Shown in pieces: positions 24,895 through 39,182 of a DNA stretch of 64,000 nucleotides. The position numbers and the translations under genes were made by a program. Source of the DNA: a bacterium (GTDB taxonomy: Bacteria > CLD3 > SB21); contig JABWCP010000001.1 in assembly GCA_013360215.1 (NCBI GenBank), positions 89,144 through 153,143 of the forward strand, in the 5' to 3' direction. The notes under the pieces were generated by a model. The model saw nothing but the letters and a program-made list of their open reading frames with translations, was not told where the DNA came from and searched no databases. Each line of letters starts with the position of its first letter. Positions within the stretch are counted from its first letter, which is position 1.

Positions 24895-27800
24895 ATGAGA
24901 GGTAGTTTTTACTCTCGTAATTGGCGTGGCGCTTTTGTGTATATGGCAATGTTCTTATTTGCCCTTACACTTAACCTCCGCGCTCAGGTGACCACATCTG
25001 CCATAAGCGGTATGGTCAAAGATAATAACGGCACACCGCTTCCGGGCGTCAACATAGTCGCCGTACACGAGCCATCAGGAACAAAATCAGGAACCTATAG
25101 TCGTTCCGACGGTCGCTTTAATATTCCCGGTATGCGTGTTGGTGGTCCTTATACGATTACCGCCTCAATGATCGGATACAAAGAGCACAAAATTGAAAAT
25201 ATCAACCTTGCTCTCGGCGAAGACAAAAATCTTTCATTTGTATTGGTTGAAGAAGCGGTAGAAATGGAAGGTTCCGAAATTGTTGCTGAGCGTAATCCGA
25301 TCATCAGCGATACGCGAACAGGGGTAGCCCAGTCAGTTTCAACAAAAGAAATTGAAAACCTCCCTACTATTTCTCGTAGTTTTGACGATTTCACGCGCCT
25401 TACCCCTCAATTTTCCGGTAATAGCGCAGCTGGCCGCAATAATCGTTATAACTCAATTCTCATTGACGGCGCCGTAAACAACGATTTGTTTGGGTTAGCC
25501 GCAAGCGGTACACCCGGCGGCCAGGCTGGTACCCAACCTATCAGTTTGGATGCCATTCAGGAGTTTCAGGTAGAAATTGCACCGTATGATGTTCGTAAAG
25601 GAGGGTTTACGGGCGGTGGAATTAACGCAGTAACGCGCTCTGGAACAAATAAGTATGAAGGCTCAGGCTACTACTATTTTCGAAATGAAAGCTTTGTCGG
25701 CAAGTACGAAAACGCAACATCTTATGCAAATTTAGACGAAAAAGTCGCCGGTTTCCGTATTGGCGGCCCCATAATTAAAGATCAATTATTTTTCTTCGTA
25801 AATGGCGAGTATTCTACCCGCACAACCCCTACACCGCTTGGTATACTTGGTAACGGAAAAAGCAACGATTTCACCGGTATATCATCATCCGATGCGCAAC
25901 GCGCGATACGGATATTGGATTCGGTCTATAACTACAAAGCCGGCGGTTATGGTATCCAAGATTTGAAACGCCCCAATACCAAATTTTTTGCTCGTCTTGA
26001 CTACAATTTAAACAACCAACATCGTCTTACCTTACGTCATAACTTCGTCGACGCAAGCGATGACAATCTGTCCCAGTCATTAAGTTCGACCTCTGCGAAC
26101 TCAGGTTTTCGTTTGAGTGATGCAGGTTATGAATTCTTGAGCACTACGAACTCAACCGTGTTCCAGGTAAATAGCGTCATCACAAACGAATTGCACAACG
26201 AAGCAATTATCGGTTACTCCACAGTTAGAGATCGTCGAAAAATCAACGGATCGCCTTTTCCGGCTATTAACGTTCGCATTGGGAGTAATACTCTGATTGC
26301 GGGTAGTGAAAATTTTTCACAAGCAAACAGTTTGGATCAGGATATTCTTGAAATCACAAATAATTTGACGTACTACATGGGTGACCATACAATTATGGCC
26401 GGCACTCATAATGAGTTTTTCTCTTTCAAGAACGTTTTCATTCGTGATTTTTACGGCAATTATACTTTTAGCAATCTTGACTCATTAGCCGTAGGATCTC
26501 CCAGTTCTTATGGTTTGAGCTATTCTTTGGATACCAATAATTTAAAACCCAGCGCCAAATTTGATGTCCAACAATATGGATTTTACGTTCAAGATATGTG
26601 GCGAGTTACTCCTACAATGAATGTGACATTGGGTCTTCGTTTTGACTTACCGGTATTGCCGACCAATCCGACCAATAACCCCACCGTTGATACAACCGTA
26701 TTTGCGGGCGGTTTGAAGCTAAAAACTTCCGAGGTCCCGAGCGGAAATTTGCTCTTTTCACCTCGACTTGGATTTAACTGGGATGTGAAGGGTAACAATA
26801 CTACCCAGGTTCGTGGTGGCATCGGTATTTTCTCCGGACGTACTCCCTATGTATGGATTTCTAACCAGTATGGAAATACGGGTATTGAAATTGGCCGCAC
26901 AACAACCAATCCTGGGCCGCGAAGCTTCAGAACAGATGTCAACAACCAACCCGGGAAAGTATATACTGCCCCACCCAGCGAAATTGATTTGACCGATCCA
27001 GATTTTAAATTACCCCAAGTTTATCGATTAAATCTGGGCGTTGATCACGAGCTGCCGATGGGCATTACCGGCACAGTTGATTTTCTGTTGTCAAAAAATA
27101 AAAATGATATCCTCTATCAGGATATTAATCTTGTTGGCTCTTCAGGTACTTTGCAACTCAGCAATAGCGGTGACGAGGACGGAAATCGTGTCCGTTACAC
27201 AACTACGCCGACGAGCACCACGGTAAACAAAATTCGCAGCCAGTACTCCAACGTTATTTATTTAACAAACGCGGATTACGGATACGAATATAGTTTTACA
27301 ACTCAACTGAGAAAATCTTTTTCAGCTGGATTATTTGGTAGCTTTGACAAAGGATTTTTTGCAAGCATCGCATACACGTATGGACGTGCATTTGACAATA
27401 ACAGCGGTACCTCCAGCCAAGCGTTTTCAAACTGGCGGTTTAATCCAGTCAAACAAGATCCAAATAACGCACCATCCGCTACGTCAAACTATGAGACACG
27501 TCATCGGATTATCAGCTCCGTGGTTTATGATTTTGAATTCATACCTAAATACACGACAACTGTCTCTTTGTTTTACAACGGATTCTCAGGTAGGCCTTAT
27601 TCCACAACGTATGACGGTGATGTCAACGGCGACGGCCAGACGTCCAATGATTTGATTTATGTTCCCAAGGATCGTAACGATATTAATATCGTTCCTGCTA
27701 CAGCCAGTGGTGGTGCGCCAGCCGATACGCGTACCGCGGATCAGATTTGGGTTGCACTCGACGAGTATATCTCCGGCGATCCTGTTTTACGTAAATCAAG

Positions 27801-28146
27801 AGGTAAAATTATTAGCCGAAATGCAAGCCGTGAACCATGGACTAACCGACTTGATTTCCGCCTTGCGCAAGAAATACCTGTCGCCGAACAATGGGGCAAG
27901 TTCGAATTGACTGCGGACATTCTCAATTTGCTCAATTTTCTTAATGAATCTTGGGGATTGTCGGAATTTGTTAACAATCAAAACAACAGCGCTATTGTTT
28001 ACCGCGGTATCATCAGTGGCAAACCTGCATTTACATTCGGAAAGTATAATTTCCTCACAAAAGAATACGAAAACCCAAAACGCACCCAAGTCAGTGATTT
28101 GGCATCACGTTGGCAGTTGCAGCTCGGCGTTCGCTATACTTTCTAA
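24895..28146 (+). CDS. TonB-dependent outer-membrane receptor with an N-terminal carboxypeptidase-regulatory-like domain
   Basis: AAGGAG RBS. Signal peptide. CarbopepD-reg-like N-domain (SGMVKDNNGTPLPGVNIV). Plug and 22-strand-barrel-sized body (1083 aa). C-terminal LQLGVRYTF. Confidence 0.8.
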   Translation: MRGSFYSRNWRGAFVYMAMFLFALTLNLRAQVTTSAISGMVKDNNGTPLPGVNIVAVHEPSGTKSGTYSRSDGRFNIPGMRVGGPYTITASMIGYKEHKIENINLALGEDKNLSFVLVEEAVEMEGSEIVAERNPIISDTRTGVAQSVSTKEIENLPTISRSFDDFTRLTPQFSGNSAAGRNNRYNSILIDGAVNNDLFGLAASGTPGGQAGTQPISLDAIQEFQVEIAPYDVRKGGFTGGGINAVTRSGTNKYEGSGYYYFRNESFVGKYENATSYANLDEKVAGFRIGGPIIKDQLFFFVNGEYSTRTTPTPLGILGNGKSNDFTGISSSDAQRAIRILDSVYNYKAGGYGIQDLKRPNTKFFARLDYNLNNQHRLTLRHNFVDASDDNLSQSLSSTSANSGFRLSDAGYEFLSTTNSTVFQVNSVITNELHNEAIIGYSTVRDRRKINGSPFPAINVRIGSNTLIAGSENFSQANSLDQDILEITNNLTYYMGDHTIMAGTHNEFFSFKNVFIRDFYGNYTFSNLDSLAVGSPSSYGLSYSLDTNNLKPSAKFDVQQYGFYVQDMWRVTPTMNVTLGLRFDLPVLPTNPTNNPTVDTTVFAGGLKLKTSEVPSGNLLFSPRLGFNWDVKGNNTTQVRGGIGIFSGRTPYVWISNQYGNTGIEIGRTTTNPGPRSFRTDVNNQPGKVYTAPPSEIDLTDPDFKLPQVYRLNLGVDHELPMGITGTVDFLLSKNKNDILYQDINLVGSSGTLQLSNSGDEDGNRVRYTTTPTSTTVNKIRSQYSNVIYLTNADYGYEYSFTTQLRKSFSAGLFGSFDKGFFASIAYTYGRAFDNNSGTSSQAFSNWRFNPVKQDPNNAPSATSNYETRHRIISSVVYDFEFIPKYTTTVSLFYNGFSGRPYSTTYDGDVNGDGQTSNDLIYVPKDRNDINIVPATASGGAPADTRTADQIWVALDEYISGDPVLRKSRGKIISRNASREPWTNRLDFRLAQEIPVAEQWGKFELTADILNLLNFLNESWGLSEFVNNQNNSAIVYRGIISGKPAFTFGKYNFLTKEYENPKRTQVSDLASRWQLQLGVRYTF

Positions 28147-28453: not shown

Positions 28454-30052
28454 TTACTCCTTCTCTATCGCACGCTTAGGCAAAACTTCATCAGACATAG
28501 CACTCATATAAACGAAGTAAGCGACAATAGCCGCATTGCGTTTCAAATCTAAAGGCTGGATATGATCATACATATCCATGTTGGTATGCCAAGTGATATT
28601 ACCATAATCCATGGGATCTTGAATGAACTGAAATCCGTTTAATCCGGCACTGATAAAAGACATGTGGTCCGTACTACCGGTACCTTTAAGTGAAATGGTT
28701 GATGCGCCCCAGGAGCGGAAAGGTTCCATCCATTGTCTAAAATAAGACTGCACATCTTCATGCCCTTGCAAATAAATGCCGCGGATTTGACCGCCGCCAT
28801 TGTCCATGTTAAAATAGACATTGAATTTTTCATACCCCGGTTTAGCGCCGGTCGAATCATATAAATGTTTATTAACATAACCTGCCGAGCCGAGTAAACC
28901 TTGCTCTTCTGCTGACCAAAGGCCTATTTTGATGGTGCGACGGGGTTGAAAACCGATAGCTTTGAGAATACGAATAGCCTCCATCATTACGGAAACGCCG
29001 GCGGCATTATCCGTCGCTCCGGTGCTGGAATGCCAAGAATCCAGGTGCGCCCCGATCATCACAGTTTCATCTTTGCGATCACTTCCACTCCAAGTCCCTA
29101 TCGTATTATACGCTTTCAAATCTTTATCACGCCACTCGACTTGGAGATCACATTCCATGATCACTTCTTTACCGCTTTTGATCAATTCGATCAGCTGATT
29201 GTACTGCTCCGCAGAAATAGCAATCTGCGGTGCTACCGATGGCGGATTAGGATCCCACGCTTTGGGATTCGTATTACTGAACGGATCGGATTCGTCCACA
29301 AGCGGCATGGATGCACCCATAACACGCACTATGCCCGAATGAGGTGTACCGCCGCGAAAACTAAACGATCCTCCGTCCACGATAAGCGCCGGTTGTTGAT
29401 TATTAATCCATGTAAATATCCTCTGCCTTTCAATAAAAGCCGAGAATCGAGGCGACTTACGAAAACTCTGACGAAAAGATTCTGCTCGTCCTTCATTTTT
29501 ACCGGCATTGGACATGGTTAATAATTCACTATCGCTCCAGCGTTTAGCATCCGCTTCAAAATCTTCTTCAATCTTTACCTTATCGCCTAAAAGAACAATG
29601 GCATTCTTGAGCTTGTTTGAATATTTCTTCTGAATGTCCTCGAGTTTAGTTTCGTTGATATACAAGATTTTTGATCGTACCGTACCGCGCGTAGCGGGTG
29701 ACCAAGCTTTGGGATAAGCGATGAGTGGTATCGCATACGGCGCTACAATGCCGGCACGAAAACTTTTCATATCCCATCCGCGACCAAATTCTCCCCACGG
29801 CTCGACTTCCGCCGATAAACCCATTTTTTCAAGCGCCTCACGTGTCCAATCGTTAGCGGCCGCTAATCCTTTAGAATTAGTTAAACGTGCACCGATCACA
29901 TTTGTAAGAACATTCAGAGTTTGCAGAGCTTGCGAGCGCTCTATCGCCTCGGTTTTTATGGCTTCGGCGGCGGCCGAATCACCTTTTTCCGCTTGTGCAA
30001 ACAGCGAAAGACTACAGCACAAGATTACAATCAACATACGATAAAAATGCAT
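28454..30052 (-). CDS. M28 family zinc aminopeptidase with PA domain
   Basis: Signal peptide. M28 metal-binding motifs (HLDSW, DNAAG, SAEEQGLLGS, HTNMD). Confidence 0.8.
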   Translation of the reverse strand: MHFYRMLIVILCCSLSLFAQAEKGDSAAAEAIKTEAIERSQALQTLNVLTNVIGARLTNSKGLAAANDWTREALEKMGLSAEVEPWGEFGRGWDMKSFRAGIVAPYAIPLIAYPKAWSPATRGTVRSKILYINETKLEDIQKKYSNKLKNAIVLLGDKVKIEEDFEADAKRWSDSELLTMSNAGKNEGRAESFRQSFRKSPRFSAFIERQRIFTWINNQQPALIVDGGSFSFRGGTPHSGIVRVMGASMPLVDESDPFSNTNPKAWDPNPPSVAPQIAISAEQYNQLIELIKSGKEVIMECDLQVEWRDKDLKAYNTIGTWSGSDRKDETVMIGAHLDSWHSSTGATDNAAGVSVMMEAIRILKAIGFQPRRTIKIGLWSAEEQGLLGSAGYVNKHLYDSTGAKPGYEKFNVYFNMDNGGGQIRGIYLQGHEDVQSYFRQWMEPFRSWGASTISLKGTGSTDHMSFISAGLNGFQFIQDPMDYGNITWHTNMDMYDHIQPLDLKRNAAIVAYFVYMSAMSDEVLPKRAIEKE

Positions 30053-32697: not shown

Positions 32698-33108
32698 ATG
32701 AAAAAAATTCTGACGTTTTTATTGTTCACGGGCGCAATTTCCGTTTACGCGCAGGACGTTTCAAAGCAACTTGAGCGCCTAGATCCGGGTACGGCCACGG
32801 CCAATCTGGATAACTTCGGTAAAACTCACAGTGAACAAATCACGGCAGCGCACCAAGCTCGTCTGGGCGAACTCATCAAGGCCGGTACGATCATTATTCG
32901 CCAAGACACTATGATCACCGCGGATAAACCGGTTAAAATCGCATTTAACTGGCCTGTTGCAAGCGGTCAAAATCTCAAAGATAAATCCATGGTCAAACGC
33001 GACCCGCAGATAATGACACTCTATCCCGCTAAAGATCCGAGCAACAAAGATATTCCACAGCGGTGGCAGGTCACTTACAAAGATGGCACAGTCAAAGCGA
33101 TACAATAA
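32698..33108 (+). CDS. Small secreted protein of unknown function
   Basis: 136 aa with signal peptide (MKKILTFLLFTGAISVYAQ). No recognisable motif. Confidence 0.5.
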   Translation: MKKILTFLLFTGAISVYAQDVSKQLERLDPGTATANLDNFGKTHSEQITAAHQARLGELIKAGTIIIRQDTMITADKPVKIAFNWPVASGQNLKDKSMVKRDPQIMTLYPAKDPSNKDIPQRWQVTYKDGTVKAIQ

Positions 33109-33132: not shown

Positions 33133-33167
33133 GCACCCCTTCATCAAAACGGATGAAGGGGTTTTTA
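33133..33167. terminator. Bidirectional hairpin terminator between convergent genes
   Basis: CCCCTTCATC-aaaacg-GATGAAGGGG followed by TTTTT. Preceded by an A-rich run for the minus-strand reading. Confidence 0.8.
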
Positions 33168-33193: not shown

Positions 33194-33388
33194 TTAGAAA
33201 TTTGTCTCAAGCCATTTTGCTGCAAAAGCGGCTTCATCCTCATGAGCGGGCATACGGACAAACCGTTCGTTGAATTTCCATGCACCGGTTTTGGGCGAAA
33301 TTGACGAATAAACAATCATAATCGTTTTCCAATTCGCATCGCGCTTTTGTTTATCCGTTTTTTCGCCAAACGTTTGTTTCTTGGCCAT
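33194..33388 (-). CDS. DUF4295-like Cys-less small basic protein
   Basis: 64 aa, MAKKQTFGEKTDKQKRDANWKTIMIV...SPKTGAWKFNERFV. Pattern resembles the MAKK...KSPKTGAY(S/T)FKE DUF4295 mini-proteins that sit beside rpmB/rpmG in Bacteroidota. Contains no Cys. Confidence 0.5.
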   Translation of the reverse strand: MAKKQTFGEKTDKQKRDANWKTIMIVYSSISPKTGAWKFNERFVRMPAHEDEAAFAAKWLETNF

Positions 33389-33419
33389 ATTTTTATAACT
33401 CCATTTAAAAATTCATAGA

Positions 33420-34640
33420 TTAATTCACTGCGCTCTCTTCCGCGGATTGGATTATCCACTCGGGAAACGGATCAACAAATCGCACCCAATCCGTATGATC
33501 GATTTTCATCTCTTCGTCCGTAAGCAAACACTTTTCAAATGCTTCGCTTAACGAGACTTTATCCATGTCTTTACCTATGAGGACGATTTCCTGACGACGA
33601 TCTCCGTATGGCGGGTGCATTTGTGCTTCGATATCTTGTATATACGCCGCATCGTCCGGCCATGAACGGCGATCTATCGCAGACCACCAAAAACCAGCCG
33701 GTTCATAGTTGCATGTACCGCCGGCTTGTTCCCAATGCCCCGCCCACTCCATGCGCGTCGCCAGCCAAAAATAACCCTTGGATCGAAGCACTCCGGGCCA
33801 CTCTGTATGCACCCATACCCAAAATCGTTCGGGATGAAATGGTTTTCTTGCGCGAAAGACAAAACTGGAAATACCGTATTCTTCCGTCTCCGGCGTATGT
33901 TCACCGCGCAATTCCTTAAGCCAGCCGGGAGCCGACGAAGCTTTATCAAAATCAAAAAGTCCCGTATTCAATATCTGCGTCAATGGCACATCACCGTATT
34001 TAGAAAAAACAATCTGCGCGTCAGGATTCAATCTTTGGCATACGGAAAACAAAACTTTTCTGGCCTCTTCACCGATCAGGTCTGTTTTGTTTACGATTAT
34101 GACATTGGCAAACTCAATTTGGTCTATCAACAAATCGGCGATCGAGCGCTCATCTTCCTCACCCAAAGCAATGTTTCGATCTATCAGTGAATCGCTGCCG
34201 CAATAGTCGTTAAAAAAATTATACCCGTCCACAACAGTAACCATCGTATCCAGTCTGGCGTAACGGGATAAACTTTCGCCCTGTTCATCTTCAAACGTAA
34301 ATGTTTCGGCAACCGGCAACGGTTCGGATATTCCGGTTGATTCGATCAACAGATAGTCAAATCGCCCTTCTTTGGCCAGGCGCGCTACTTCGACAAGAAG
34401 GTCTTCGCGCAATGTACAACAAATGCATCCGTTGGTCATTTCGATCAATTTTTCTTCTTTGCGACTTAAGGCGGCCTCACCGTTTTTGACGAGCGATGCA
34501 TCAATATTTACTTCGGACATATCATTGACGATTACCGCGACACGTTTACCTTCGCGGTTTTTCAAAATGTGATTGAGTAATGTCGTTTTTCCGGCGCCTA
34601 AAAATCCGGAAAGCACGGTGACTGGAAGTTTTTTAATCAT
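33420..34640 (-). CDS. COG0523-family GTPase (CobW/ZigA/YeiR-like putative zinc metallochaperone)
   Basis: Start at MIKKLPV. Walker A LSGFLGAGKTTLLNHIL. Canonical metal-binding GCICCTL (CxCC) motif. C-terminal CobW_C-like domain. Confidence 0.8.
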   Translation of the reverse strand: MIKKLPVTVLSGFLGAGKTTLLNHILKNREGKRVAVIVNDMSEVNIDASLVKNGEAALSRKEEKLIEMTNGCICCTLREDLLVEVARLAKEGRFDYLLIESTGISEPLPVAETFTFEDEQGESLSRYARLDTMVTVVDGYNFFNDYCGSDSLIDRNIALGEEDERSIADLLIDQIEFANVIIVNKTDLIGEEARKVLFSVCQRLNPDAQIVFSKYGDVPLTQILNTGLFDFDKASSAPGWLKELRGEHTPETEEYGISSFVFRARKPFHPERFWVWVHTEWPGVLRSKGYFWLATRMEWAGHWEQAGGTCNYEPAGFWWSAIDRRSWPDDAAYIQDIEAQMHPPYGDRRQEIVLIGKDMDKVSLSEAFEKCLLTDEEMKIDHTDWVRFVDPFPEWIIQSAEESAVN

Positions 34641-34800
34641 AAAAGCATCTCTAAAATAAGTGTAAATGAAGAATAAATCATCACTGGCCGGGTCACGGCA
34701 ATACATAACACCGATCTTTTGTGTAAGGCCAATGGAAAAGGAATAATGGAAAACCTCTGTTAGAAGTTTCCTCATTTAAGGAATAAATGTTAATGTGTAT

Positions 34801-35157
34801 TTAGACGAACAATGGCGGGGCTCGAGCGGAACGACGTGGTAAAATACTTTCAAGAAACCAAACATGGCTGTGGCCTGTGTTCTCATTGATACTAGACACA
34901 ATAACGAGTGACAACGAATCAACACGATCGTGCCCCAATGCAAATTGATGAGCCAAACAATACGGATGTTGGGCGTCTTCCCCTGTAGAATAGCCGATAT
35001 CGCTGCTGGCAATTTCAACCGTATGAACCGATATGCCGCACTGATCCGTATGCAGCATCGGTAGCAGGCTACAAACGATCAGATAAAAAACAATGTATAA
35101 ATATCGTAACAAAGAGTGCACGTTCCGCTTTCCGATTAGAACTAATAAAGGCGTCAC
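34801..35157 (-). CDS. Small membrane-anchored Cys/His-motif protein (paralog of 38263..38592)
   Basis: About 118 aa. N-terminal hydrophobic helix then LLPMLHTD...C...H...CLAHQF...GH.H motifs shared with its paralog. Probable GTG start. Confidence 0.5.
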   Translation of the reverse strand: MTPLLVLIGKRNVHSLLRYLYIVFYLIVCSLLPMLHTDQCGISVHTVEIASSDIGYSTGEDAQHPYCLAHQFALGHDRVDSLSLVIVSSINENTGHSHVWFLESILPRRSARAPPLFV

Positions 35158-35190
35158 ATGATAAGTAACGCCTTGTATTTATGAGAAACC

Positions 35191-35745
35191 TTATTGAATC
35201 CGAATCGGAAACTCCACCTCAATATCCGTTTCGCCGGGTGTAGATGTACCGTTTTTGACTCCGGGCTGGTGTTTAAGCGTCACATGCGCTTCGCCGCTTG
35301 AGGCCGCACCGGTAATCCAACGCGTCAGTAAACCGACGGGAATATTATTATCATCCACATCGCGATAGTTTACGACAAGGTTAACATCGTGGCCATGAAA
35401 GAAAAACATATGATCATTACGTTCATCATACACTTCATTGGAAATCGTATCGGCGGGTTCTTCCGTTTCGTTTAATAAAACGATCGTAGCGTGATAGGTT
35501 TTGTTTGCGGCTAATTTAATTGTATCAAACTGTACCGGATCCGCGCCGCCTTCACCGTCCAAATCGCGAAACGAGGCCGTAACCGTATTCGCCGCATTCG
35601 AAGTATCTACAAACTTAATCACGACCGATGTGATGAGTTCTTCCGGATTGGTTTCCTTATCGTCTTTTTCGCATCCGCTGAATACAAATAATGACATCAG
35701 TATAGTTACAGTTAATAACGCTGTTTTTGAGAAAACACGTGTCAT
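35191..35745 (-). CDS. His-motif lipoprotein, receptor-associated
   Basis: Lipobox (LFVFSGCEKD). Contains HMFFFHGHD. Immediately downstream of the TonB-dependent receptor on the same strand. Confidence 0.55.
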   Translation of the reverse strand: MTRVFSKTALLTVTILMSLFVFSGCEKDDKETNPEELITSVVIKFVDTSNAANTVTASFRDLDGEGGADPVQFDTIKLAANKTYHATIVLLNETEEPADTISNEVYDERNDHMFFFHGHDVNLVVNYRDVDDNNIPVGLLTRWITGAASSGEAHVTLKHQPGVKNGTSTPGETDIEVEFPIRIQ

Positions 35746-35785
35746 ACAACACCCCTTAAGTTTTTCGATTAATGATTTATTTTAA

Positions 35786-38167
35786 CTAAAATTCTAGGTT
35801 ACCAAACGGAATCTGAACACGCAGCACAATATTGCGACCGGGATCATCTATATAATATCGAAACCGGCTCAGATAATTCGCGTACCGCGTATTGAATACA
35901 TTATTGATGGCCAGACTGATCGTGATCGGCGACCAGGATGTATGCCATTCGCACCCAACTTCAAAATCAACCGTCACATAGCCGGGTGGCGGAGTGACCG
36001 TAACCGAGTCGGCATCGTTTACAAACGTCTCGGCACCTTCAGGTACATGCGATTGACGGCGATACCATGTTATCCCGATATCCACATACGGTTCATGGAT
36101 CGTACCCGCATCTGAAAAATGCCAATGCATAAGTCCACTAAATCGGTCGGAAGGCATATAAATCAGGGGCTCATCTTTTTTCAAATCGCGACCGCGCACG
36201 ATAGACCATCCGGCATCAAGACGCACAATGTCAAGGGCATGCCATTGGATCTGACCGTCAATACCGGTCAATTGAGCTTCGGTCTGCGCATAACGAAACG
36301 TCGGAAAAGCCCCCCTGATCGTGAGCGTAGGTTTACGCGATGGATACAAATGAATATAGTTATCCATGCGGTTTACAAACACACTCACATCGCCGTTGAT
36401 CTTTTCACTGTTATGATGCAAAGTGATATCCGTACTGTAGCTTTTTTCTACACCCATCGCAGGATCGCCGATTTCGTATTGTGCCGTGCCATGGTGAACT
36501 CCGTTACTATATAACTCATTTACTCCCGGCGGTCGCCACGCCGTACCGGCATTGATCCCGATTGACCAATATTCCGCAAAACGCCGGTTCACACCGACGG
36601 CCGCCGAAGTACTGCGATAAACATGGTCTTCATTTTCATTTACACCCAACTTCAACTGTTGTTGTGCTGTAAAGGAAGCATCCAGCCATCGTTGGTCATA
36701 GCGTAACCCCGCCTCTGCTGACCAATCATCTTGCACCCATTTTTCGATCCAGTACAGACCGGCATTATATGTACGGAAACTGGGAATCAGACGTATCGCT
36801 TGATTGACATTGCGCTGCCGCATGACATTGACGCCGATGGTTCCGGCAAAGTCCCCGATCGGACGATGACGCCATCGTACATCGGCGGTGTAGGTGTACA
36901 GCGAAAGATCAAAGGAAGGTTTTTTTAAATCCTCGGCCGGTGTACCGAGCGGCTTATGCGAATCAAACTCCTGACGATGATTGCGTTGCCAACCGCCCTG
37001 AAATTCGAAACGATCACCGGCATCCGTTTGACGGTGCACACGAGCTGATATCAGATCATGAGTGATTACCTGACGTGGATTTCCGATCGCGAAGGAAAAA
37101 TCATCCTCGGTTAATGGAACACGGTTGCGTTTTATCGCAGCGATAAGATCGCTGGTATTCCCGATATGCGAACCTTTGTAGATACCAAGTTCCGTTCCAA
37201 AATGACTATAATACAATTGCGATTCCCAGCGATGGTTTCGAAATCCCACCGCCGCAGATCCGTTGAACTCCTGAAATCCGGAATTACCTATGACATAACG
37301 CGGTGTTTGAGCATTACCCGCCTTACGCCCGCTGACCTGTGCACGCCAACCAAAACCGGGTTTATTGGCAAGGCCCCCTTCGATTCGCAATGCTCCGGCC
37401 ATTTGGCGATTATTGGTAAAACCGTTGAGAGAGAGCTCGCCTCCGATTCCGGCATGTTCCGGTAACGGACTTGGCTCTACACGTATCACGCCGCCGATAG
37501 CACCTGCTCCGTATTCTAAACCCGAAGCGCCGCGTATCACCGTAATGCTTCCGGCCGCAAACGGATCTATTTCGGGTGCGTGTTCCCCTCCCCACTGCTG
37601 TCCTTCCTGCGTTACGCCGTCATTGAGCACGACGACGCGTTGGCTATGCAGGCCGCGCACTACCGGTTTGGCAATCGACGGACCGGTTTGGAGTAACGAG
37701 ACCCCCGGAACATCCTTTAGGGTTTCTCCCAGGGTTTGTCCGCGATGTTGATCCAGCTGCCCTTCATCCAGTGCCGTCACGGATTGATAGGAATCCATTA
37801 CATTATCCCGCTCCACGGTTACAGTTGAACCTTCGATCTGTAACGGATCCGGAGTTAATGTGATGTCCAATGTTATTGAACGATTGAGTTCGATCGTTTT
37901 TTTATAAATACCGTAACCGATGATCTGGGCCGTAACTTCATACGTACCGGCCTTGAGACCGCTGATCACATAATGACCGTGCGCATCCGTAATTGTTCCC
38001 TTTTTTAAGGCGGGAAAAAATACAGACACACCGGGTAATCCATCATGGGTATCTTTATCGTACACAGTTCCGCTGAGTTTGAATGTCTCACCGGGATTTT
38101 CTTCAGCAACAGCCGTCGAAAAACCAAATATGAGCATGACCCAAACCACAACGGAAGTACGATGCAT
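35786..38167 (-). CDS. TonB-dependent outer-membrane receptor (CarbopepD-reg N-domain plus plug plus barrel)
   Basis: Start at MHRTSVVVWVMLIFGFSTAVA signal peptide. SGTVYDKDTHDGLPGVSV carboxypeptidase-regulatory-like domain. Plug region (DEGQLDQHRGQTLGETLKDVPGV). Terminal aromatic residue. Confidence 0.8.
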   Translation of the reverse strand: MHRTSVVVWVMLIFGFSTAVAEENPGETFKLSGTVYDKDTHDGLPGVSVFFPALKKGTITDAHGHYVISGLKAGTYEVTAQIIGYGIYKKTIELNRSITLDITLTPDPLQIEGSTVTVERDNVMDSYQSVTALDEGQLDQHRGQTLGETLKDVPGVSLLQTGPSIAKPVVRGLHSQRVVVLNDGVTQEGQQWGGEHAPEIDPFAAGSITVIRGASGLEYGAGAIGGVIRVEPSPLPEHAGIGGELSLNGFTNNRQMAGALRIEGGLANKPGFGWRAQVSGRKAGNAQTPRYVIGNSGFQEFNGSAAVGFRNHRWESQLYYSHFGTELGIYKGSHIGNTSDLIAAIKRNRVPLTEDDFSFAIGNPRQVITHDLISARVHRQTDAGDRFEFQGGWQRNHRQEFDSHKPLGTPAEDLKKPSFDLSLYTYTADVRWRHRPIGDFAGTIGVNVMRQRNVNQAIRLIPSFRTYNAGLYWIEKWVQDDWSAEAGLRYDQRWLDASFTAQQQLKLGVNENEDHVYRSTSAAVGVNRRFAEYWSIGINAGTAWRPPGVNELYSNGVHHGTAQYEIGDPAMGVEKSYSTDITLHHNSEKINGDVSVFVNRMDNYIHLYPSRKPTLTIRGAFPTFRYAQTEAQLTGIDGQIQWHALDIVRLDAGWSIVRGRDLKKDEPLIYMPSDRFSGLMHWHFSDAGTIHEPYVDIGITWYRRQSHVPEGAETFVNDADSVTVTPPPGYVTVDFEVGCEWHTSWSPITISLAINNVFNTRYANYLSRFRYYIDDPGRNIVLRVQIPFGNLEF

Positions 38168-38262
38168 CGTTAAAATAGGCATGCATTTCCTTCGTGTAGA
38201 TCGCGGCAAACTAAATGTCGCCGGATACAATCATGAAACCAAAAGGGAGTTTTAAATGGAAA

Positions 38263-38592
38263 CTAGGAAATTACGGGAGGACCGCGACCGGCATGAACCT
38301 GATCAAGTGATGCGGTGTGTATCGGTGAGTAACAAACAATTTCAAATAACGGAATATAAACATGCGAAACGCCGTGAAATTGGACTAAACTATGTGATGC
38401 GCTGTACTGGTGCGCCAAACAAAAGTCCGCGTCATCCGATAAATGATGACCGTTTTCAACGTCGGTAATGATCGTTTGCGCAGCTCCGCTACAAGGCAAA
38501 CGATCCGTATGAAAAAACGGCAGCAGCATAACCAGCGGTACATACGCGATCAATATCAGGCGCGATAAAATATGTTTAGCCGGTTGCTTCAT
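38263..38592 (-). CDS. Small membrane-anchored Cys/His-motif protein (paralog of 34801..35157)
   Basis: 109 aa. N-terminal helix then LLPFFHTD...C...GHH...CLAHQY...H.VSH; aligns along its whole length with the 34801..35157 product. Confidence 0.5.
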   Translation of the reverse strand: MKQPAKHILSRLILIAYVPLVMLLPFFHTDRLPCSGAAQTIITDVENGHHLSDDADFCLAHQYSASHSLVQFHGVSHVYIPLFEIVCYSPIHTASLDQVHAGRGPPVIS

Positions 38593-38615
38593 AAAGTATG
38601 ATAAGATATCGTTAG

Positions 38616-39182
38616 TTATTTGTCAAGCGGTTTGACGTTGGCCGCTTCATCCAAAATATCAAACAGACGACGGAGCGTTTCGCTTGTTATAACGATAGGA
38701 TTTTCAGCTGTTGGTTTAGAGGTGATACTCGGGGACGCATCGGCGCTATCGGGTTGATTTTTGTTGGCATCCGGTATCACGTGCAGCTTAAAAATTGAAA
38801 GACCGATTCCGCCTTCAGCCATAAGTTCGTCTGACAAATGTGCTATAGCCGATATTTTGATGACATAGATACCATCTGTCAAAAGTTTTGCGGGAGTGGT
38901 AATGGCCGTTTCGTGATGTTGGCCATATCTGATTTTTCTGACACTTCCGGGTATCATCGAGGCGCGCCAGCATTCTTCGATGCGTTTTCTTCCGTTCTGG
39001 CTTTCTTCCGGTAAATACCGGCCTACCGTGATGGTAAAATAATCAATCATCATCGGTACATCCGCCACGGTGCTCCATTCGATTTCCCAATTCTCCTCAG
39101 GAACAGTCATACCGCGTTGCTGCGGCTTCTGTATGGCATCCTGAGGACGCACTTGTATAAAAAATCGTTCCATACCTACCAA
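38616..39182 (-). CDS. Hypothetical protein
   Basis: 188-aa ORF overlapping the upstream exonuclease gene by 7 nt. No recognisable motif. Confidence 0.45.
   Translation of the reverse strand: MVGMERFFIQVRPQDAIQKPQQRGMTVPEENWEIEWSTVADVPMMIDYFTITVGRYLPEESQNGRKRIEECWRASMIPGSVRKIRYGQHHETAITTPAKLLTDGIYVIKISAIAHLSDELMAEGGIGLSIFKLHVIPDANKNQPDSADASPSITSKPTAENPIVITSETLRRLFDILDEAANVKPLDK

Follow-up and report, generated by a model that had tools for sequence, protein, structure and literature searches.

What would a bacterial zinc cluster gain from opening each of its two halves with a small Cys/His reading frame that ends in a potential ribosome-stalling motif? This question is raised by a 64,000-nucleotide (nt) stretch of DNA, here called the window (positions 89,144 to 153,143 of the forward strand of contig JABWCP010000001.1, assembly GCA_013360215.1), from a bacterium of the GTDB lineage CLD3; SB21, in which six minus-strand genes, designated A to F, lie between positions 33194 and 38592. 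Zinc regulation is thought to be essentially transcriptional, via Zur, and we know of no riboswitch or leader-peptide sensor for zinc. By analogy with leader peptides described in copper systems, we propose, at a probability of roughly 55%, that the locus serves the acquisition and allocation of zinc and consists of two units, each opening with a leader that would sense metal through ribosome arrest.

A first-pass annotation, made from the sequence without database searches, had described six co-directional minus-strand open reading frames (ORFs); all six were recovered at the positions given there and their domain content holds. Along the minus strand they form two units, A-B-C and then D-E-F. 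The first begins with A (38263..38592), a leader-type ORF of 109 amino acids (aa), and continues after a gap of 80 nt with B (35786..38182), a ZnuD-like TonB-dependent receptor of 798 aa, and C (35191..35745), a 184-aa lipoprotein with an Ig-like beta sandwich. The second begins with D (34801..35121), another leader-type ORF of 106 aa, followed across a spacer of 160 nt by E (33420..34640), a ZigA-type COG0523 GTPase of 406 aa, and, starting 31 nt after E, by F (33194..33388), a basic protein of 64 aa without Cys. Two start codons were revised. For B the likeliest start is ATG 38182, not 38167 or 38230, because this ATG and the preceding AAGGA are kept in a divergent relative and the NCBI annotation also gives 798 aa. 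For D it is GTG 35121 or TTG 35112 (106 or 103 aa, as called elsewhere), not GTG 35157, to which the longest ORF reaches. The arrangement did not arise by chance, since its order and parts recur in relatives. Gene-neighbourhood conservation had been suggested as a check in the first-pass annotation, and it was found: the full gene order is identical in metagenome-assembled genomes (MAGs) of the same species, at about 95% nucleotide identity, one divergent relative (locus L088) keeps A (66% identical there) and B together with the gene for a 188-aa protein upstream of A, and another (L175) keeps E and F, with the ZigA C-terminus 53% and F 80% identical.

The case for zinc begins with E. As had been recognised from its GCICCTL (CxCC) motif, E is a COG0523 GTPase, in which Pfam finds a cobW domain (PF02492, 1.3e-57) and a CobW_C domain (PF07683, 2e-27). 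Against the equivalog model of the zinc metallochaperone ZigA (NF038288) it scores 662.2 bits at a cut-off of 600, with residues 5-393 matching positions 1-390 of 390, and NCBI gives the name ZigA to the identical protein cluster. The scores for CobW (TIGR02475; 145.5 bits, cut-off 332.1) and for Mrf (191 bits, cut-off 375) are both below their cut-offs. Because E passes the ZigA cut-off and fails that of CobW, it does not group with CobW, the result that the first-pass annotation itself had named as speaking against a zinc operon.

The receptor had been read as a CarbopepD-type TonB-dependent protein, and Pfam indeed finds CarboxypepD_reg, Plug and TonB barrel domains in B. It scores below every curated NCBIfam receptor cut-off: the top matches are haem/haemoglobin receptor subfamilies (171 and 147 bits; cut-offs 317-324), the TonB-copper model gives 62 bits at a cut-off of 472, and the ZnuD model NF038289 gives 139.4 bits at a cut-off of 950, so that B is ZnuD-like and not a member of the ZnuD family. 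Among solved structures the nearest is Neisseria ZnuD (4rdr, E=2.5e-23), aligned over plug and barrel, and the next are the haem receptor ShuA (about 4e-8) and OprC (5e-5), aligned over the plug only; by E-value, ZnuD is the closest solved structure by 15 orders of magnitude. ZnuD has a buried high-affinity zinc site formed by Asp99, His100, Glu340 and His499 (PMC4557270). A Glu-His pair at the plug apex of B (GGEHAPE) aligns to D99-H100, and a His-His pair (NGVHHGT) lies opposite H499; three of the four ligand positions are thus aligned, and all three are invariant in 73 homologous receptors, the Glu340 position falling in a poorly aligned loop. The likeness to ZnuD of N. meningitidis (PDB 4RDR) therefore comprises the alignment of plug and barrel, the acidic-His pair at the plug apex and the loop His, whereas B differs in carrying an extra CarboxypepD_reg domain and in having a dedicated lipoprotein partner, which ZnuD lacks.

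This partner, C, had been correctly taken for a lipoprotein (its lipobox is FSGC), and the HMFFFHGHD stretch reported in it is present; conservation of the HGH within that stretch did not hold up, as only its first His (H112) is invariant. C matches no Pfam or NCBIfam family, and its 487 homologs, almost all from Bacteroidota, likewise have no Pfam family. The residues invariant in the family are the lipobox Cys, H112, H159, D61, D63, E104, E108, D129, D131 and D174. A scan of one genome per species yielded 80 deduplicated Bacteroidota loci, on which our counts for the module and its leaders are based; the receptor was found in 78 of them and the lipoprotein immediately 3' in 77, making C an obligate neighbour of B-type receptors. 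After the lipidated Cys, C reads C-E-K-D-D, where the sequence elsewhere is mostly C-K-K-D-D/E, and a K-D/E-D/E-type signal is carried by 47 of the 77 homologs, mostly as CKKD. The export signal of Bacteroidetes lipoproteins is K-(D/E)2 (PMC5080379), and since C-E-K-D-D matches this signal, C is probably exposed at the cell surface, where it would form a capture-and-import pair with B.

The genomic surroundings of the B-C module in other species point in the same direction. ZigA lies within 10 kb of the module in five of the related loci, among them L008, with the gene order leader-ZigA-receptor-lipoprotein, and L073, with leader-receptor-lipoprotein-ZigA and a cation-efflux protein further on; L027 contains a Fur-family gene, a MerC-like gene, FolE, ZigA, DUF1826 and the lipoprotein. 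The assignment to zinc acquisition, which the first-pass annotation had proposed, is thus borne out by several independent lines, namely the ZigA equivalog E, the proximity of B to ZnuD and the co-occurrence of B and C with ZigA, FolE, DUF1826 and Fur-family genes elsewhere, and we consider it quite likely to be right.

Some companions of the module were recorded as observations in their own right. A small MerC-like membrane protein (PF03203, 7e-17) adjoins ZigA at L027:6158-6562, and a similar 136-aa membrane protein lies 3' of ZigA at L073:12608-13018; the MerC-like protein beside ZigA might serve the zinc regulon as a metal permease in the inner membrane. In 10 loci (L012:10571-11038, L001:8613-9086, L074:7854-8336 and seven more), C is followed by a lipoprotein of about 155 aa that has a His/Glu-rich stretch (e.g. 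EEEGHEHEHDHAEEE) and no Pfam family, and that may be an additional metal-binding component. Right after the module in L008, at L008:7240-9618, come a 143-aa ORF ending in FHPPQA, then MbnP (7.6e-56) and then a putative di-haem cytochrome c peroxidase, which was assigned by the look of its sequence and whose homolog in L029 matches CCP_MauG at 4e-51; these genes may form a separate copper-type unit next to the module, with a proline-ending leader of its own.

The two ORFs that head the units are paralogs, as the first-pass annotation had stated (32% identity over 73 residues, E=7e-9), but its description of them as small Cys/His membrane proteins is better replaced by that of CruR-like ribosome-arrest leader peptides. 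A and D have one layout in common: a basic N-terminus, a hydrophobic membrane anchor (maximum 19-residue Kyte-Doolittle score 2.18 in A and 1.93 in D), HTD, C-L-A-H, 41 residues, R(G/A)PP and a tail of 3 residues. In A, which ends in GRGPPVIS-stop, C-L-A-H is encoded at nt 38410-38421 and RGPP at nt 38275-38286; in D, which ends in SARAPPLFV-stop, C-L-A-H is at nt 34948-34959 and RAPP at nt 34813-34824. The 41 residues between the two motifs are unconserved in sequence. Of the 441 ORFs of 40 aa or more in the six frames of the window, two contain R[GA]PP, namely A and D, both at the C-terminus. Neither A nor D matches a Pfam or NCBIfam family, and word-indexed searches with them returned near-identical sequences only. 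An NCBI family by the name of 'HYC_CC_PP' was considered and dropped, as it was absent from the scans and the literature. The C/G ratio is 1.5-2.5, on a strand background of 0.9, in a stretch that takes in the 3' end of A or D and some 60 nt beyond, and this C-rich, G-poor stretch resembles the rut region of cruR.

The best-studied leader of this layout is CruR (DUF2946) of Bordetella pertussis, in which an export signal, CxxC, 45 residues, RAPP, 3 residues and the stop are followed by a long spacer and a TonB-dependent transporter; mutations of RAPP abolish expression of the downstream receptor, mutations of CxxC abolish copper control, and the mechanism proposed is a metal-relieved ribosome arrest that otherwise blocks Rho-dependent termination (PMC9426467). 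In vitro work has since demonstrated the arrest of CruR at RAPP; RAPP and RGPP proved the most potent motifs of this kind and are avoided in proteomes, and leader ORFs with RAPP/RGPP and signal sequences have been found in silico 5' of TonB-dependent receptors across Gram-negatives (PMC12992588). Like the CruR-CrtA(BfrG)-Bp2921 system (PMC9426467, PMC12914433), the cluster described here opens with a small ORF in which an export signal and a Cys motif precede a RAPP-type motif and a 3-residue tail (the two motifs being 41 residues apart here and 45 in CruR); a spacer without coupling and a TonB-dependent importer of metal come next, and the logic would fit uptake that is switched on when metal is scarce. 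It differs in its zinc context (ZigA and a ZnuD-like receptor) in place of copper, in having a surface lipoprotein as partner and not a PepSY_TM protein, and in bringing two leaders into one cluster, the second before a cytoplasmic COG0523 GTPase. With ApdA, ApdP and the 'TonB-related uORF' class (PMC12992588) the leaders share a C-terminal RGPP/RAPP, an N-terminal localisation signal and a position 5' of a TonB-dependent receptor; that survey's text mentions neither zinc nor COG0523, and the leader family found here, with its His/Cys motif, fixed spacing and lipoprotein partner, does not appear in it. CutF of Rhodobacter capsulatus is similar in that it, too, is an exported leader that acts as a nascent chain, has a Cys motif and, at its C-terminus, a proline-rich site for stalling, and controls the next gene, CutO, but its polarity is opposite to that needed by an uptake or chaperone unit, as copper induces stalling, the ribosome-binding site of the detoxification gene is unmasked and expression is on at high metal (10.1101/2025.02.05.636593).

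Leaders of this kind are not confined to the window. In 56 of the 80 Bacteroidota loci, an ORF of 95-150 aa that ends in [RK][GA]PP plus 1-8 aa lies directly 5' of the orthologous receptor, at a median spacer of 56 nt, and in three loci a further copy follows the lipoprotein, just as D follows C in the window. The motif is RGPP in 30 cases, RAPP in 17, KGPP in 8 and KAPP in 4, and in 39 Bacteroidota leaders the distance from CxxC to the R is 43-48 residues. Such an ending is found in 63 of the 4113 small ORFs in these loci, and 59 of the 63 adjoin the module. When 24 diverse leaders were aligned, invariance was limited to Met1, a single His following the anchor, CxxC and PP, and the mean column identity was 26%, a pattern that fits a sensor-plus-arrest peptide better than a folded protein. 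Our claim, drawn by analogy, is that A, D and the Bacteroidota leaders would work like CruR from the same position without being members of DUF2946.

The transcripts appear to begin close to the leaders. A putative sigma-70-like promoter (38598..38626, minus strand; TTGACA-17-TATCAT) ends 5 nt before the ATG of A; it matches 11 of 12 positions, is the best such site in 7.6 kb, and the divergent relative L088 has kept its TTGACA together with the non-coding ATATCTTATCATA. An exact TAnnTTTG, which we take to be the -7 promoter consensus of Bacteroidota, ends 2-17 nt before the leader start in 21 of the Bacteroidota cases, at a background of 3.5% per 60 nt. Given these promoter-like sites at the leader starts, A and the Bacteroidota leaders appear to be translated from leaderless or near-leaderless mRNAs. 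A k-mer enrichment upstream of the 56 leaders revealed no shared operator. The repeat ACGATA-TCT-TATCAT over the -10 box of A was considered as an operator and, being not palindromic in L088, was treated as part of the promoter.

Between the two units, right after the stop of C, there is a 10-bp hairpin (35148..35174, minus strand) with CTTATCATG in its loop and 3' arm. This hairpin, with which a weak promoter-like site (TTCTCA-18-TATCAT) overlaps, is a possible terminator or attenuator between the units. The octamer CTTATCAT was observed just 5' of both leader ORFs, at 38598-38606 in the -10 region of A and within 35148-35174, in the loop and 3' arm of the hairpin, before D; an 8-mer shared between two regions of ~60 nt has a chance probability of about 0.05. 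The D-E spacer (fold z-score -1.96) contains one terminator-like hairpin with a T-rich tail (34749..34771, minus strand), for which we infer a role in attenuation. Folding of the spacer RNAs yielded no attenuator model. A predicted bidirectional intrinsic terminator with an 11-bp stem (33135..33162) closes both the cluster and the convergent gene at 32698-33108.

On the gene identities, the anatomy of the leaders, their recurrence upstream of orthologous receptors and the zinc context, we base the following proposal. The mRNA would begin at or just 5' of the leader start codon, and the ribosome on the leader would halt three codons short of the stop, with the two prolines of R(G/A)PP occupying the P and A sites. 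The stall would block premature termination in the C-rich spacer, either Rho-dependent or via the hairpins, and the downstream genes would be expressed. With zinc sufficient, the His/Cys motif (H...C-x-x-H) would bind metal, the arrest would be released and expression would fall; because this motif lies 41 residues before the arrest motif, it should just have left the exit tunnel. In unit 1, leader A would thus govern the ZnuD-like outer-membrane receptor B and its surface lipoprotein partner C, and in unit 2, leader D would govern the zinc metallochaperone GTPase ZigA (E) and the bL38-type ribosomal protein F. That A and D are ribosome-arrest leader peptides we regard as probable, and zinc as their ligand, a choice that draws on the context, we put at even odds. 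The more specific idea that they are the first zinc-responsive arrest leaders, a CxxH variant of the CruR principle controlling an importer with its lipoprotein as well as ZigA co-expressed with an alternative bL38, is offered tentatively and as a minority expectation.

A number of observations weigh against this proposal. Stalling, the zinc ligand, the direction of the switch and the coupling to downstream expression are all steps that we infer, and all experimentally studied leaders of the CruR-type class sense copper. The essential CxxC of CruR is CxxH in A and D, the distance to the arrest motif is 41 residues and not 45, and neither A nor D nor any of eight Bacteroidota leaders matched DUF2946 at E<=1; the Bacteroidota leaders likewise match no other Pfam or NCBIfam model. 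An hhalign comparison of A and D with the 24 Bacteroidota leaders aligned the N-terminal anchor alone, at 23% probability; we therefore do not claim homology between the two sets, only the same architecture and position. Within the closer family, C34 of A is unconserved, and RGPP is replaced by RDPP in the relative P0126. The RNA is of little help, since the A-B spacer has no significant structure (z = 0.26) and the D-E hairpin begins 29 nt past the stop of D, out of reach of the stalled ribosome. Finally, ZigA lies within 10 kb of the module in just 5 of the 80 non-redundant related loci, and the copper-associated MbnP and di-haem peroxidase stand near it in L008.

Could a repressor alone account for the cluster? 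The first-pass annotation had expected a Zur-type operon, and in the window nothing was found to bear this out: an inverted-repeat scan and a search with a Bacteroidia palindrome gave no site upstream of A or D, the host's own Zur box not being defined, and no Fur-family protein is encoded in the 64 kb. The palindrome itself comes from the relatives. The upstream region of the receptor is readable in 65 loci, 55 with a leader directly 5' and 10 without, and 8 of these 10 carry one or two copies of TGCAAC-N3-GTTGCA just 5' of the receptor (background 0.067 per kb); of the remaining two, L008 has its leader in front of ZigA, and L055 does have a leader, which this count had not included. The same palindrome precedes the FolE-ZigA-DUF1826 operon in L027 and a ZigA-COG0523 operon in L074, abuts Fur-family genes in L027 and L079, and lies over the leader promoter in about five leader-bearing loci. 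Upstream of leaderless modules and of ZigA/FolE/DUF1826 operons, and beside Fur-family genes, its sites include L012:7631-7690, L020:7602-7655, L062:7604-7672, L027:6091-6145, L074:10993-11060 and L079:7420-7475, often as two copies ~40 nt apart. Because it stands before ZigA operons and beside Fur-family genes, it is likely the Zur box of Flavobacteriales and other Bacteroidia, a candidate that would most simply place the module in the zinc regulon of those relatives, and its distribution suggests that in controlling the module, leader and repressor replace or complement each other. A conventional Zur-repressed zinc operon would make A and D stable membrane or periplasmic Cys/His proteins that pass zinc to an inner-membrane transporter, with R(G/A)PP non-regulatory. 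Such an operon would suit ZigA and a ZnuD-like receptor, both typical Zur targets, the module behind the candidate box in relatives, sometimes together with a leader, and the several His and one Cys kept in both A and D. It sits poorly with the lack of a Fur-family box or gene in the window and with the 24 leaders, where conservation is reduced to the anchor-proximal His, the Cys motif and PP in a way typical of arrest peptides; nor would it account for a motif fixed at 1-8 residues from the stop and at a set distance from the Cys motif, when RAPP/RGPP stall ribosomes and are avoided in proteomes (PMC12992588). We therefore judge this explanation unlikely.

The choice of metal raises two further alternatives. 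If A and D were CruR-type copper sensors, B would import copper chelates and ZigA would be coincidental or serve another metal; the only characterised leaders of this layout, CruR and CutF, do sense copper, the Bacteroidota leaders carry CxxC, and MbnP and the di-haem peroxidase adjoin the module in L008. The receptor, however, matches ZnuD over plug and barrel and OprC over the plug only, and stays far from the TonB-copper cut-off; a ZigA equivalog stands directly behind leader D, as ZigA does behind the leader in L008; the module and the FolE-ZigA-DUF1826 operons have the palindromic box in common; the leaders of the window are CxxH and not CxxC; and a survey in EMBO J found its copper-related leader classes lacking in Bacteroidota. 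A copper system is for these reasons rather improbable. Haem or iron uptake, with B as a haem-type receptor and C as a haemophore-like surface lipoprotein, could appeal to the top NCBIfam matches of B and to the two facing His (plug apex and loop) that are common to haem receptors and ZnuD (PMC4557270). Yet all haem models remain far below their cut-offs, haem receptors in the PDB match only the plug of B, no haem-utilisation genes lie nearby, where the context is ZigA, FolE and DUF1826, and C shows no similarity to HmuY or other haem binders, which leaves this reading very improbable indeed.

The last gene of unit 2 would link the cluster to the ribosome. F had been described as Cys-free and DUF4295-like, and both features were confirmed; the accompanying idea of a Cys-less paralog of a Zn-ribbon protein was not, as F belongs to bL38/DUF4295, the alignment of F-like proteins has no conserved Cys, and we know of no Cys-containing bL38 counterpart or Zn-ribbon form. 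DUF4295 is the ribosomal protein bL38, which stabilises uL6 (PMC11851116). On its own F scores 16.1 bits against DUF4295 (PF14128, E=0.0098), below the gathering threshold of 27, and a word-indexed search returned near-identical sequences only. A full HMMER scan of 1.8 billion representatives yielded about a dozen F-like proteins of 57-107 aa that are 38-50% identical (MAKKQTF..K....K.VK.V.S..S.KTG.W.F.E..V); DUF4295 is matched by 12 of 14 F-family members (best 8.4e-7), and the family profile matches the ribosome DUF4295 chain 9i5t_15 at E=8.6e-4 and, weakly, F. johnsoniae bL38 (7jil_4, E=0.23). By these profile matches, F is a divergent bL38-type ribosomal protein. F-like genes elsewhere adjoin L28 or L33 (L090, L093 and five further metagenome loci) or stand alone, and in the 85 metagenome loci that contain an F-like gene, no COG0523 gene lies within 5 kb; F itself follows ZigA with no linkage to bL28 or bL33 genes, an adjacency that is kept in the divergent L175. 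The mycobacterial alternative ribosomal protein operon with the COG0523 protein Mrf and the ZigA regulons are similar in placing a COG0523 gene beside a small ribosomal gene under zinc limitation, but the partner here is bL38, and E scores as ZigA and not as Mrf. As a separate observation, MAKKQTF-type bL38-like genes lie directly 5' of L28 and L33 in uncultured lineages (L090:485-1159, L093:137-634, L133, L135, L136, L139 and L095), where the order is bL38-L28-L33 as against L28-L33-bL38 in Bacteroidia; this suggests a distribution of bL38 that extends beyond Bacteroidia and Rhodothermia.

Several other features of the window may be added. The 188-aa protein upstream of A (38616-39182, minus strand) is cytoplasmic and without a family match; its gene ends 23 nt before leader A, its last codons hold the -35 box of the putative promoter of A, and both the gene and the junction are kept in L088. 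A few kb away, Pfam tags on syntenic MAG loci indicate a second large CarboxypepD_reg-type outer-membrane protein of 1083 aa (24895-28146, plus strand) and an M28 zinc peptidase (28454-30052, minus strand). An Rfam scan of the window found one tRNA and no other RNA family. Shine-Dalgarno-like motifs precede about one third of the genes in the host, strong ones standing before ribosomal genes; although the closest homologs of C are from Bacteroidota, this usage is unlike that of typical Bacteroidia and suggests that the host is not a typical member of them.

The first-pass annotation had called the architecture undescribed. RAPP/RGPP leaders before TonB-dependent receptors have in fact been described (PMC9426467, PMC12992588), and what stands of that statement is that a link to zinc or COG0523 has not; the CruR paper itself remarks that post-transcriptional sensors for copper and zinc are absent (PMC9426467). 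New with respect to the literature is a CruR-type leader system in a zinc context, duplicated in one cluster and with one copy before a COG0523 gene and a bL38 gene. If the leaders sense copper or do nothing, the locus would be an ordinary zinc locus with two odd small genes. If they are zinc-responsive, the sensing of metals by nascent chains would be a strategy of general use, tunable in its specificity (CxxC or CxxH), there would be a testable candidate Zur box for Bacteroidia, and the question would arise why a bL38-type protein is tied to ZigA. In addition, a widespread but unannotated receptor-lipoprotein pair of Bacteroidota would gain a function, the capture of zinc at the cell surface. 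Should the CxxH variant of the CruR principle prove true, metal sensing by nascent chains would be extended from copper to zinc and tied to the remodelling of ribosomes under zinc limitation.

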